A stretch of DNA of 64,000 bases, taken from Octopus vulgaris. Taxonomy: Eukaryota. The stretch is taken from contig OX597817.1 in the NCBI GenBank assembly GCA_951406725.2, positions 99,076,001 to 99,140,000 on the forward strand. Reading direction: 5' to 3'. Numbering within the stretch: position 1 is the first letter of the stretch; each line of letters begins with the position of its first letter. Below are positions 1,106 to 59,790 of the stretch, one piece after another. The notes under the pieces were generated by a model that saw only the letters and a list, made by a program, of their open reading frames with translations, ran no database searches and was not told the DNA's origin. The position numbers and the translations under genes were made by a program.

Positions 1106-1311
1106 TATCTATACAATATGTTACATTACTCGGTAGTCAAGATAAAACTCTGAGTTTCAGATGCCGAAGTGGAAATCCACAACACCATATCTTCGGTTAT
1201 CTGGCTATTTAGCCAGATAACCGAAGAGATGGTGTTGTGGATTTCCACTTCGGCATCTGAAACTCAGAGTTTTATCTTGACTACCAAGTAATGTAACATA
1301 TTGTATAGATA
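1106..1311. repeat. Fold-back palindrome (~102-bp arms) next to (TA)n
   Basis: 1106-1207 is the near-perfect reverse complement of 1210-1311, centred on CTGGCTA-TT-TAGCCAG. Confidence 0.95.
1215..1277 (+). ncRNA. Degenerate type I hammerhead-like motif (mirror copy on minus strand ~1140-1202)
   Basis: AGATAA-CCGAAGA-GATG...CATC-T-GAAA-CTCAGAG-TT-TTATCT. Stems I and III pair; the core has CCGA instead of CTGA. Confidence 0.5.
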
Positions 1312-1394
1312 TATATATATATATATATATATATATATGTATGTATGTATGTATGTGCAGCTTTTTATGTTTTATGTATGTATACTCGTGCATA

Positions 1395-2190
1395 TAGTTG
1401 CATATCTAGACATACTCATATATATTTAAATGATAAACTTCTGGAATGTTTTACAAATTTTTACAGTTCCAGTGATGGATTGGATCTGTAGTCTTCGAAT
1501 TAGCCTTCTCCTTTCTGGTTTTTAGAAGGCTAATTTCTCACGATTGGTATCTAGGCAGTGTGTTACATATCCCCGGGCCCCAATAATAACAGATAAAAAC
1601 CTGAACTTGTAATCTGGATAGAGTAACTGCAGATTTCTCAGTAGTTCAGCATAGATGTTCTCTTTTTCACTAATCTTCTGCTTTATGTTAACATCCGCTG
1701 GGCAGCTAATTTCTACGACTACGCACAGTTTCTTTTCTCTATCCCAAATCATTATATCAGATCTATTGTGCTTACATTTTATTGAGGTCTTCACTGGTAC
1801 ATTCCACCAGTATTCCTTTTTGATATGAGTGGCTATGGTTTCTACCATATTTTGGGTTCTTTGTCCTTGGGATTATCCTTCCAACAGATTTCATTATAGA
1901 GTGTCCTAGCTACAACAATATATCTCATGATGACATTTTCGAACAACTGCTTATGATGTGCGTGATATCTTCAGTGTGAACTCCACAAAGTCTGCATCAG
2001 TTGTCACATTTTACGGCTTTTCCTGCATCTCTATCCCTTTTGTGCATCAGGTACTTGGTTGGTATTTCTTGTTCCTGGATAGCAAACGCATACCCTTCAA
2101 ATTGGGAGGTATTAATCCAGCTATTTTAGTCCATGATATACTGCTTTGATGATCGATGTTACTATAATCACTGAAATTTCTACTGATATA
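1395..2190 (-). mobile_element. 3' fragment of an RLE-type non-LTR retrotransposon (R4/Dong-like)
   Basis: ORF 1522..1848 YWWNVPVKT..KHNRSDIMIWDREKKLCVVVEISCP...EKENIY...IIGARG matches the PD-(D/E)xK restriction-like endonuclease. A decayed CCHC region lies upstream. Confidence 0.75.
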
Positions 2191-3542
2191 CCCATGCGTA
2201 CATACACACGTATGGATGGATGGATGGATGGATGGATGCATCTATTAAAGAAATTTTTTTAAATGATAAAAGCAAAAGGCTAAATGGATGTATATGTGTA
2301 AAAGAATTCAGAACTGAGTATTTTCGCTATAATAGTTAAAGGTTAAAAGTTCAATTATTTTTGATGGTGGTTTGGTTGAAGTCTTTGTATTTATGTGTAT
2401 GATTGTATGTATATGTATTTTTATTATGGGAAATTGTATACATACACACACACACGTGTGCACGTATGTGTGTGTGATAGTGGGAGAGAGAATGATGGAA
2501 GAAGGAAATAAAATTTCTTGTTGCTTGTTCAAAAAAAAATATCTTTGCAATGGCACCCATTTTAAAAAATTTCTTTAATAAATGCATCCATCCATCCATA
2601 CATACATACATACATACATCCATCCATCCATCCATCCATCCATCCATCCATCCATCCACACATACATACATACATACATACATACATACATACATACATA
2701 CGTACGTACGTACGTACGTATGTATGCATTCAGGTTTTGGACAAGCACAAACACATAGCCACACACACACACACGGAGACATTTGGAGTCACACAGTGGT
2801 GCTAAATCCAGAAACATATAGCTAAGGAACAAAGTTCCTACCACACAGACAGGTCTGTGTCTGACAACAGAGCTTATAGATAAAAAAAAAATTATAAGTA
2901 TATAACCAGCTTCCAAAAAATTCTAATTAATAATTATTATTAATTTGCATTTTGTGTATATCTCTTTTAGTGTAACAAAATGCAACAAAGTTGCATTTCT
3001 TTGGGACCTTGTTAAATTTCTTTCTGAGTTTTGCCAGAATATTTTTAAAAGGCATAGTTTAGATGAAGTTTGAATTTATAGTTTAACAACACCCAAGTTG
3101 ATTTCGGTGAGAAATAATGTTTTCCCTTGTTTTTCTTTTTTCTTTTGCTATCAACTAATCTCATCAAATATACTACAAAGACCTTTTCCCACTGAAATCG
3201 GAGTGGGGTGGGCCCTCAGAATCCTCCTCTCACCTCAGAGTTATATATTTCTGTGGGATGACGTCAGCAGCTGGGCAACCAGAAGGGGCAGCCGTGAGGC
3301 GCGCGTAGGGAGCGGCGATTTCGGCCTTTTCGAACCAGGGTCATCGACGTGTCGAGACGGGGGAAGACGTTGCTAAGGTTGGGTGAAGCAGCTGCTATCT
3401 TTAGCACTCGGGTCGGAGCTGTGTCGAAGGATCCGTTACCACTGAAGGGCCCCCTCGGAGCGAAGAGAAGGTAGGTGCCTTTATATTCGAATCGCGCACA
3501 CACTACAAGCTATTTCGGCGCTCCACATAAGTCGTCACCACG

Positions 3543-57441: not shown

Positions 57442-58678
57442 TCAGGCTGAGTAGAAAGTAAGCACCGTTTTGAAACATGAAATTCATCACAATATATTTC
57501 AACAATGTAGAAATTTTATTCATCAAAGTAAGTACCATTACAATCAACACATTTTTGCTGATGAGTTACAAGTTTGTTTATTCCAGTAATATAAAAATCT
57601 GGAGTTCTGGAGCTGATGCACTTTCAGCATCGCTTCCATTTTTTAACTCCTTCTCTCACTGGAAACCATCAAGGTGCTTGAAAAACTGGTAGTTGGTAGG
57701 AGAAAGGTCTGGGGAATAAGCTGGGAAGGGAAGAACTTCATAGCCACATTCTCTCAACTTCTGGAGCATCATTAATGACATGTGTAGTCATGAAGAATGA
57801 TTGGCCCTCTTCTGTTGACCAGTCTGGGACGGAGGAGTAGCAGTTTTACATACATTATGGCAATTTTATGGCAATATGTTTCTGCAGTAATGGTTTTTCC
57901 AGGTTTTAAAAAGTTATAGTGGATGAATCCAGCAGTACACCAGCAAATGGTCACCTTCTTTTTGAAGAGCTCAGGTTTAAAGAAGGATTTTGGTGCTTCA
58001 TTTTGGTTCAACCACTGCTAAGGATGTTTTTTATTATTGTACAGATTCCACTTTTCATTGCAAGTTACAATACAGTTGAGAAATGGATCGATCTGGTTAT
58101 GGAGAAGAAGCGACAAGCAAATTTCATATCTGCGCATTTTCTGATTTTCATGTAGTACCCATTTGTTGAGATTTTTTTGATTTTCCAATCACATGCAAAG
58201 TTTTCTGGCTAACTAAGTTTTTTTTTTTGCCAGTTCTCGAGTGGTTTTACATGGATCTTTCTCAATGATGGTCTTTAATTGACCATCATCAATGACAGAT
58301 GGGTGTCTACTATGCTTACGATCTTCAAGGCATAGATCTCCACTGCAAAATCGTTTAAACCATTTTCGAGCTTACCACTCACTGGTTAATTCCTCACCAA
58401 ACGTTTTGTTGATATTGCGAGCAGTTTCAGCTGCTTTACATCCTTTTATGAAGTTGAATAGCAAAATTGCTGGAATATCGCACTTTGACAGTTCCATTTC
58501 AGATGATTGTAACAACGGTGAAAAACATATCAATGTTAACTTATTGATGCATTTGGACAAGTCTATATCTGTATTATCAGAAAATTGCAAAAAATGTTTT
58601 AAAAAATTCAAAACTCTGCAAAAATCTGGTATAAATTCTTCATGGTTCAAAGAGTTGCTTACTTTTTACTCAATCTGA
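57442..58678 (-). mobile_element. Full-length decayed mariner
   Basis: TIRs TCAGGCTGAGTAGAAAGTAAGCA and TGCTTACTTTTTACTCAATCTGA, TA TSD. KAAETARNINKTFG and LVNRRGPIILHD. Confidence 0.85.
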
Positions 58679-59575
58679 TAGTAATTAGTGTCAGTACATA
58701 TATTTATATGTAAATTTTTATGTAATCATTAGTAAGTTTTCATATCTATATTTATATATATATATCTGTATATAAGAGTATGCATTTATATTTATACACA
58801 CATACATACACACACACACACACACACACACACACACATATATATATATATATATATATATATATACACATACACATATGTATACATAATTTGTATGCAT
58901 TAAACTGCATCTAGTGATGAAGCTCCTGTTTGGGAGTTCTGGAGTTGTAGGGAGTGTGGAGTCACTCTTTATTTATCATTACTTATAAGTTTGTTCTAAC
59001 CCAGATTGTTAGCAAGAACTACTATCATATACAATTAATATTCATTTTTATACGAAACATCTTTGATTGGGCAGTATTTTGTCTTAGATGGTGAAAAAAA
59101 ATTTATCTTTAGAAATTTGATGTTATAAGGTATTCTTTAATGATCAAATAATATTAACACAAATTAAAAAAGAAAAAAATGCTGAAGCAAAATATAAACA
59201 AGTTTTACTAACAATACCTTCTGTATTCATATTTTGAACATTTTTCAGTTGTAAAATAATCAGAGATATCAGTATTATTGTTAATGTTATGAAGGAAACA
59301 AAATGTCGGGAGCTAGTTTAATAATGTACCCATAGCATGTATTTTAACTAAGTGGAACTATATAATTTCAAAAACAAACTATTTACTTGTTTACAAATTT
59401 ATATCTTAAAGGAGCTAATGACACTTACCAAAGAAGGATATTTGCTATCTTTTTTTGCAGTTAGAATTGAAGATGGCAGTGAAAATTGCAATAGTTACCA
59501 GTCACAGGAAAAGTAAAACATATTTGATATTCATTATATATATATATATAATATATATATATATATATATACAAT

Positions 59576-59790
59576 TGGGGAAGACCAGTTTATTGGATTA
59601 CCTAAGATTTCCCGTCCATAAAGGGTTTAGCTTTATGGTGTATTGTCAGATCCCAAAAACCTGTTGGCCTCTTAAAAATATTTTTAGGAGTTAATGAGCC
59701 AACAGATCTTTGGGATCTGATGATACGCCATAAAGCTAAACCCTTTATGGACTGGAAACCTAAGGTAATCCCATAAACCGGCCTTCCCCA
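59576..59790. repeat. Fold-back palindrome next to (TA)n containing an HHR
   Basis: 59576-59667 is inversely similar to 59698-59790, with several substitutions. Confidence 0.9.
59712..59772 (+). ncRNA. Type I hammerhead ribozyme (minus-strand twin ~59595-59654 is mutated)
   Basis: GGGAT-CTGATGA-TACG-CCATAAAG..CTTTATGG-ACTG-GAAA-CCTAAGG-TA-ATCCC. Confidence 0.85.

Follow-up and report, generated by a model that had tools for sequence, protein, structure and literature searches.

The 64-kb window analyzed here (Octopus vulgaris contig OX597817.1, positions 99,076,001 to 99,140,000, within a 2.8-Gb assembly of 227 contigs) contains a series of short inserts with hammerhead ribozyme motifs in (TA)n-rich surroundings. 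These inserts are very probably the 5′-truncated and often inverted 3′ ends of several Hydra-type Penelope-like elements (PLEs), together with a single tandem element that is non-coding and was likely mobilized by these PLEs; they carry predicted type I hammerheads and were likely inserted in (TA)n by target-primed reverse transcription. All 12 hammerhead sites listed in an initial annotation of the window were present, and each was a member of a dispersed repeat. They do not represent 12 separate insertions, but nine, as three pairs (i.e., 17002/17741, 29306/29644, and 59595/59712) are each the two arms of one inverted insertion. The repeats form nine families (A to I), whose first-look candidates, which are not copy numbers, amounted to 1069 (A), 1736 (B), 3465 (C), 2200 (D), 2004 (E), 1224 (F), 312 (G), 89 (H), and 1835 (I). 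The suggestion of at least eight families of PLE ends or PLE-mobilized non-coding RNAs was borne out for six families of PLE 3′ ends and one non-coding tandem unit, while two families were left without assignment. Overall, this is real and mostly known biology: new families of a described clade that behave as the clade does.

In six families, copies elsewhere in the genome extend upstream into a Penelope-like frame encoding a reverse transcriptase (RT) and a GIY-YIG endonuclease (i.e., H at 1.2 kb of the window, A at 17 kb, C at 28.6 kb, F at 29.0 kb, B at 29.3/29.6 kb, and E at 59.7 kb). Among the best-scoring loci sampled for each family, a same-strand PLE protein ended 50–280 nucleotides (nt) upstream of the query segment in 10 of 30 A loci (including the window's own arm), 13 of 30 C loci, 4 of 30 E loci (one of which supplied the E query protein), and 6 of 25 H loci (leaving out the window's own locus, whose match is an unrelated RT fragment). 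Within 1.5 kb upstream, a PLE protein was found at 0 of 30 loci for each of B, F, and G, at 1 of 30 for D (where it belongs to a neighboring element), and at 1 of 25 for I. In B, the distance from the hammerhead back to the open reading frame (ORF) is ~2.0 kb in locus L280, and L160 likewise has an upstream ORF; in F, the ORF lies 3.2 kb upstream in L278, with an endonuclease remnant in L276. Of the loci extended together in one set, 1 of 2 B loci and 2 of 4 F loci had the ORF. Near-complete H ORFs were found in L281 (714 amino acids) and L282 (648 amino acids), ending ~240 nt upstream of the equivalent of the window segment. Locus L411 contains a whole C element, which consists of (TA)n, an inverted tail, a pseudo-long terminal repeat (pseudo-LTR) with a hammerhead, a 778-amino-acid frame, a 3′ untranslated region (UTR) with a hammerhead, and (TA)n. 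The order of an intact element is (TA)n, hammerhead-bearing pseudo-LTR, single RT plus GIY-YIG ORF, hammerhead-bearing pseudo-LTR, and (TA)n; the pseudo-LTR structure is present in L411 and L162, and the upstream hammerhead copy of C is located ~330 nt ahead of the ATG. Hydra elements are generally shorter than 3 kb; C and H elements are ~2.5–3 kb in length, and those of B and F are longer because their 3′ UTRs measure 2.0 and 3.2 kb, respectively.

The encoded proteins, which are 28–52% identical between families, have the RT motif YRDD/YKDD. The GIY-YIG pattern (i.e., Y-x-G, R, H, E, and N) was aligned in A, B, C, F, and H, and in the same five families CxxC and CxH surround the conserved E and N without a CCHH motif. 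The N-terminal motif reads RWK in H, RWA in B, and RWL in C, and DKT is found in all three. A CxCX5C linker is present in A, B, and H, and its second cysteine is replaced in the single F copy that was read. The model of the C protein, built from an alignment of 111 sequences, had a mean predicted local distance difference test (pLDDT) score of 87.6, and telomerase RTs accounted for 8 of its 10 best structural matches (best E 4e-9). The Pfam GIY-YIG model matched an H fragment below its cut-off (E 0.069), and a single-sequence fold of the endonuclease was discarded (pLDDT 33). These motifs are the ones given for the Hydra clade in PMC8557442 (section 11), and a comparison by eye was made with published Hydra sequences; the families appear Hydra-like. 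A quick tree of 45 proteins with partial rows was not used for clade membership.

Junctions were compared with the background, given that (TA)5+ arrays are so frequent in this genome (765 in 600 kb, or ~1 per 780 nt) that TA adjacency requires such a control. The proposed preference for (TA)n was upheld: (TA)n followed 143 of 163 3′ ends of families A (26/30), B (22/29), C (24/29), D (17/21, the remaining four being junctions inside arrays), F (29/29), and H (25/25), vs. 4.3% of random positions. In a sample drawn blind from the genome (see below), 7 of 11 scorable motifs had (TA)5 within 150 nt downstream, vs. 12% of random positions. Each family has two 3′ end points, with or without a terminal tail (13 vs. 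12 copies in H, 18 vs. 11 in A, and 16 vs. 14 in C), and two such ends are explained by two internal RT start sites in a related element (PMC11167929). 5′ truncation, scattered 5′ ends, and inverted arms are all found in the PLE families. Inverted arms, tail, and (TA)n junctions constitute the pattern reported for PLEs (PMC8557442). Because (TA)n is met by both alternative 3′ ends and by both arms of inverted insertions, it looks more like a target than like a templated tail.

At seven window sites, the boxes CUGANGA, GAAA, and NUH of the core follow one another as in type I hammerheads, together with stems I to III. A strict type I descriptor, which only two window sites passed (shuffle mean ≤0.12), was too narrow to serve as the search tool. 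A relaxed descriptor that tolerated a mismatch at the stem II base and a stem II span of up to 80 nt gave 7 window matches, compared to a mean of 0.08–0.10 and a maximum of 2 in dinucleotide shuffles (100 at each of three block sizes). The composition-shuffle check put forward in the initial annotation thus indicates that the motifs are not chance occurrences. As this descriptor had been tuned after the motifs were seen, 60 blind 10-kb stretches of the genome were used as an independent test; with a CCGA core additionally permitted, they yielded 17 matches in 13 stretches, vs. 0–4 across 10 shuffles. This corresponds to ~7–8 × 10^4 descriptor-passing motifs genome-wide, with an uncertainty of ~2-fold, and the motif density of the window is ~4 times the genome average. 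The Rfam hammerhead families had no match across the window at E up to 1 and none in 28400–30100 at E up to 10; the only Rfam matches in the window were sub-threshold microRNA and small nucleolar RNA hits caused by hairpins and repeats. Elsewhere in the genome the Rfam Hammerhead_1 model (RF00163) scored above its cut-off at 6 of 73 candidates, including motifs in L416–L420. The long stem II probably explains the Rfam misses, as the Rfam hammerhead model spans 45 positions.

The fetched loci contained 206 distinct motif contexts, which fell in 27 clusters, 14 of them with at least two members; family H lies outside the descriptor. Stem II spans 10–78 nt across these loci; nor are the window's hammerheads minimal, with stem II plus loop ranging from 10 to 56 nt. 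Stem III is fully or nearly palindromic. All 14 of 14 families retain the pair 15.3–16.3, which the descriptor did not demand, and five types of base pair occur there. The paired changes in stems that had been called for were also found: both sides were changed in 9 of 22 pairs among six C-like motifs, vs. 0 of 500 shuffles, and compensatory changes affected 2 of 10 pairs among four B-like motifs. Stem II base mismatches occur in B, D, and F. Nearly all H copies (24/25) and most of the C copies that bear an endonuclease (23/30) have the U4C core, which also occurs in I and other clusters; this change lowers activity in vitro yet supports a viroid in vivo (PMC3088659). The hammerheads are predicted type I ribozymes that may self-cleave after H17. 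The palindromic, unstable stem III points to cleavage as dimers in tandem transcripts, as proposed for similar motifs (PMC4209133); the inverted arms of the window, which lie on opposite strands, could presumably not cleave as cis dimers. All inserted copies run past the predicted cut site. Given also the scattered 5′ ends of the non-coding families D and J, the template RNA would have been uncut or re-ligated.

The non-coding family D forms head-to-tail arrays of 559–561-nt units, with 12 units within 10 kb of L158, and some D arrays carry an inverted short array and TA flanks. We noticed a second, related non-coding tandem unit of 582–583 nt, termed J. Both have one type I hammerhead per unit, a GC content of 34–35% (below the 45% limit for retrozymes), and longest sense ORFs of 29 (D) and 49 (J) amino acids, and thus agree in sequence with the definition of non-LTR retrozymes. 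Their 3′ ends cluster at the same two offsets, 190–200 and 285–305 nt past the cut site, while 5′ ends within 10 nt of the cut site were seen in only 1 of 38 (D) and 2 of 45 (J) cases. The cut site as definer of insertion ends was thus unsupported for D and J, whose 5′ ends are scattered. Units of the same array have private variants in common, with 1.6 substitutions within vs. 3.7 between arrays. The sharing of such variants fits copying from one template; mosaics in L158 and L163 also fit later unequal exchange. The interpretation of D as the 3′ UTR of an upstream PLE in L116 was ruled out, since a (TA)n array intervenes. Contigs of four presumed RNA runs cover the D unit (30, 30, 30, and 26 of 30 bins), and two include the head-to-tail joint; tandem DNA gives the same result. 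At corresponding positions, D and J also have in common one short motif rich in G and two rich in AT (window 22690–22710; L389), which are candidates for a promoter or protein-binding site.

Family C differs from its relatives in the linker. Four cysteines of the linker do not vary in any of 110 aligned relatives, whereas all four are replaced in C (30 of 30 loci), and the corresponding segment (residues 614–640) is of low confidence in the protein model. C is accordingly classed as Hydra-like rather than as a Hydra member by its sequence, since the CxCX5C linker is absent. All 150 scored matches to the C linker–endonuclease region were 97–100% identical, two of them with 778-amino-acid frames, and 29 of 30 endonuclease-bearing copies ended in (TA)n (array starting within 12 nt of the end). 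A hypothesis in PMC8557442 ties the linker to microsatellite targeting; the same paper notes that Chlamys elements, which have no such linker, also target repeats. C argues against that hypothesis in the group with a C-terminal endonuclease, unless it is mobilized in trans by a linker-bearing relative; given the intact C frames, self-mobilization appears more likely.

Among the longer elements, the F 3′ UTR contains 18 (TA)6+ arrays in L278 (− strand, 4101 to 934). It is collinear between the independent copies L278 and L276 (80–84% over 0.9–1.7 kb), and hence each long F insertion brings new (TA)n arrays. The 2.0-kb 3′ UTR of B is a milder version of this microsatellite-rich region. Taken together, we lean slightly toward a joint reading in which C would be a self-mobilizing PLE without a zinc-binding linker, mostly U4C, young and abundant, with insertions confined almost entirely to (TA)n; D and J would be retrozymes with circular RNA that are inserted by a Penelope mechanism; and F would spread its own (TA)n targets via its 3′ UTR. 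If so, the linker does not confer microsatellite targeting, contrary to the published hypothesis, and strong ribozyme activity is dispensable.

We propose that the endonuclease would nick (TA)n and that reverse transcription would start inside the RNA, at either of two sites that follow the hammerhead, producing ends with or without the tail. Early termination and a strand or template switch would then generate short pieces and inverted arms, in which the hammerhead-bearing 3′ tip survives. The hammerheads may cleave weakly as dimers in tandem transcripts via the palindromic stem III, and thereby trim precursors or yield circles. Neither end of the inserted copies coincides with the cut site, and the RNA that was copied would be intact or re-ligated at that point. 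The 560- and 583-nt non-coding units would borrow the PLE protein in trans.

Several results weigh against this explanation. No family G ORF was detected in 30 loci by tblastn and custom profiles, and for family I the same searches gave a single RT remnant among 25 loci, situated 1.3 kb upstream. Pfam gave no above-cut-off match for any of the Hydra-like proteins, and a sequence search of solved structures with these proteins returned nothing meaningful. The loci sampled were the best-scoring copies rather than a random draw. (TA)n after the 3′ end was low in the old families E (10/30), G (9/30), and I (7/25), whose junction references lack full tails, and 5′ ends directly abutting TA were few in D (6/38) and J (5/45). 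The six C-like motifs of the covariation set were related sequences picked by the descriptor, and their shuffle count is not a probability; monomer folding was not significant against shuffles for any window motif (z −1.2 to +0.9). Neither an autonomous partner nor a PLE pseudo-LTR homologous to D or J was present among the fetched loci, the genome not having been searched exhaustively.

The inserts could instead be mainly independent non-autonomous RNAs, such as retrozymes or short interspersed element (SINE)-like units, and not truncated coding elements. The D and J arrays, with up to at least 12 units of 559–561 or 582–583 nt, their very short sense ORFs, and the private variants shared inside arrays, are in line with this possibility, and so are the short A-related copies that start 15–45 nt upstream of the hammerhead in all 14 loci read. 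We nevertheless regard it as quite improbable, since six of the nine window families reach RT/GIY-YIG ORFs in other copies, with scattered 5′ ends. Another alternative, which we consider unlikely, accepts the inserts as PLE ends and takes the hammerheads for inactive relics and the TA adjacency for a product of element-made TA tails or later repeat expansion. The prevalence of U4C in H and C, the mismatches at the stem II base of B, D, and F, the TA-rich sequence inside F and B, the frequency of (TA)5+ arrays, and the finding that just one of nine tested Xenopus retrozyme dimers cleaved (bioRxiv 10.64898/2026.07.22.740005) can all be cited for it. However, 14 families of differing sequence have all preserved the boxes of the core, stems I and II, and the palindrome of stem III, which requires selection in the source lineages; U4C reduces but does not abolish viroid activity (PMC3088659); and, as both 3′ ends and both inverted arms meet (TA)n, the arrays resemble a target more than a templated tail. 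It was also considered that a short motif might be matched by chance in repetitive DNA rich in AT, given the tuned descriptor, the non-significant folding, and the lack of Rfam matches in the window. The shuffles of the window and of the blind stretches and the covariation have already refuted this idea, and the family-wide conservation and fixed place in PLE 3′ UTRs also make it exceedingly improbable.

The class itself, whose status the initial annotation could not tell, is already catalogued (PMC4209133; PMC8557442, where the Hydra clade includes one Octopus family). Similar to the Hydra clade (Craig et al., 2021; PMC8557442), the families described here have one RT plus C-terminal GIY-YIG ORF, RWK-type and DKT motifs, CxxC/CxH without CCHH, a hammerhead near the 3′ end, (TA)n targets, inverted 5′-truncated copies, and a tail. 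Hydra-1_Obim of Octopus bimaculoides has a hammerhead and a (TA)n preference (PMC8557442 supplement), and family H resembles it by eye over the printed N-terminal part. At least six families were found here in one 64-kb window, whereas one Octopus family is listed in that source, with a hammerhead unlike all those found here. Stem II reaches 78 nt here, compared to roughly 10–25 nt in the Hydra rows of PMC8557442, and tails measure 65–150 nt rather than 30–40 nt; the absence of the linker in C and the 2–3-kb 3′ UTRs of B and F are also unlike the Hydra clade as described there. In common with the PLE hammerheads of Cervera and de la Peña (2014; PMC4209133), there are many sequence families per genome, mostly as single motifs from truncated PLEs, as well as opposite-strand pairs 100–700 nt apart, short stem I, palindromic stem III, and a dimer model. 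The far longer stem II and the U4C cores in young lineages differ from what is described in that source, and the ~7–8 × 10^4 motifs estimated here compare with 2,000–9,000 obtained there with other descriptors.

The likeness of D and J to non-LTR retrozymes (Cervera and de la Peña, 2020; PMC7229834) lies in tandem units that are non-coding and low in GC, contain a single type I hammerhead, and occur from monomers to long arrays. Their units of 560–583 nt are longer than the 150–450 nt given there, and fall inside the 51–972 nt of a preprint (Li et al., 2026; 10.64898/2026.07.22.740005). Unlike those retrozymes, D and J end at two 3′ points, have (TA)n as target, and carry inverted arms of the kind seen in PLEs. 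The PAc Poseidon element of Anolis (Frangieh et al., 2024; PMC11167929) is alike in that two internal RT starts explain the tail, the targets are AT-rich, and the RNA template is uncut; its hammerhead was dispensable in vitro, with internal initiation. PAc belongs to another clade, and its hammerhead overlaps the ORF start, unlike that of family C ~330 nt before the ATG. The long stem II (25–78 nt), U4C in young lineages, linker loss, PLE-style retrozymes, and microsatellite-filled 3′ UTRs were not found in the literature searched; the U4C or long-stem variants may be described in Lünse et al. (2017). The main text of the 2026 repeat annotation of Octopus vulgaris (PMC13282606) has no mention of ribozyme, hammerhead, or Hydra, and the families may already figure in Repbase or Dfam. 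As natural variants within one genome, they bear on two questions left open in PMC8557442: how PLEs are aimed at microsatellites and what role the hammerheads play. Near-intact ORFs are present both in family C, which has no linker, and in family H, which has one, so that the two are comparable in the in vitro assay available for PLEs. That standard models here miss long-stem hammerheads by the tens of thousands suggests that ribozyme counts in such genomes are too low.

Within the window, the family H insert at 1042..1308 is a 5′-truncated PLE 3′ end plus an inverted arm, with (TA)n on both sides; its − arm (1210–1042) carries a ~65-nt tail. The H hammerhead at 1216..1276 (+) has a CCGAAGA core (U4C), a stem II span of 31 nt, and a palindromic stem III. 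The site at 1215–1277 had been called degenerate, but its core is the family norm (24 of 25 copies), and a second H hammerhead on the inverted arm (1141..1201, −) was absent from the initial list. The family A insertion (16795..17937) consists of a − arm (17497–16795, with the ORF end, 3′ UTR, and tail) and an inverted + arm (17486–17937), with hammerheads at 17004..17068 (−, stem II span 39 nt) and 17742..17806 (+, passing the relaxed descriptor). The host inserts were described as non-coding, but this insert at 17 kb is not entirely so: 17497–17299 (−) encodes the final ~66 residues of the family A GIY-YIG endonuclease (tblastn; profile E 5e-21; blastn to L152). Family D is represented by ~1.3 units of the 560-nt non-coding tandem repeat at 22468..23187 (+), a retrozyme-like insert flanked by (TA)n arrays whose hammerhead (22869..22920, +) has a U-U at the stem II base and a span of 25 nt.

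Family C occupies 28430..28722 (−), where a Hydra-like PLE encoding a protein devoid of the linker cysteines has left its 3′ UTR and a tail of ~150 nt; the C hammerhead (28603..28689, −) has a stem II span of 56 nt that covaries among related families. The final ~320 nt of an F element, the PLE with the 3.2-kb microsatellite-filled 3′ UTR, lie at 28853..29171 (+), with a hammerhead at 29036..29086 (+) that has a short stem II and an extended stem III; the array at 28724–28852 is probably internal to this F element. The B insertion (29197..29757) comprises a − arm with tail (29510–29197) and a + arm (29517–29757). Its − hammerhead (29306..29383) has a stem II span of 51 nt, while that of the inverted arm (29644..29721, +), listed initially as intact, has C15.2 changed to T and failed the descriptor. 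An old G element with a short inverted arm (29817..30073, +; hammerhead 29883–29930; ORF not found by the searches above) is followed at 30125..30392 by a J remnant plus inverted arm, truncated before the hammerhead, as the tenth element of the window. An old I element, whose PLE link is weak, is located at 43700..43911 (+) with a hammerhead at 43824–43863, and the E insertion with its inverted arms at 59572..59830 (hammerheads 59595–59654, −, and 59712–59772, +). The sites at 29883–29930, 43823–43864, and 59595–59654 are decayed relative to their own families, in agreement with the initial annotation. Its statement that almost all inserts abut TA arrays holds for most of them; the insert at 43.8 kb has no adjoining array, and the + arm at 59.7 kb ends in (CA)n.

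Five of the ten elements (C, F, B, G, and J) lie within a 2-kb TA-rich tract at 28430–30392, a packing consistent with repeated insertion into each other's flanks. An RT fragment of a family C relative (69% amino-acid identity) is found at 471..787 (+), followed by (TA)n. Elsewhere in the genome, a young A-related subfamily (L017–L030 and L330) shares the A hammerhead and 3′ end at 98–99% and has a different short 5′ segment; its 5′ ends, described above, suggest a short SINE-like unit. Another type of PLE, distinct from Hydra, has a Cys-rich linker and a GIY-YIG domain and also ends in (TA)n; it was seen at window 51741–52067 (−) and in L005, L006, L116, and L155, and copies of A and D are located in its flanking arrays. 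Other repeats of the window include an LTR-retrotransposon-like element at 3273–7020, which has direct repeats of 235 nt (97%) and in which the gag, RT, RNase H, and integrase-like frames are broken (domains named by eye), LTR-type remnants with 300-nt direct repeats at 30780–35759 (93%) and 37467–40432 (87%), and Mariner/Tc1-like transposase fragments, recognized by eye, at 46526–47422 and 52949–53416 (−).

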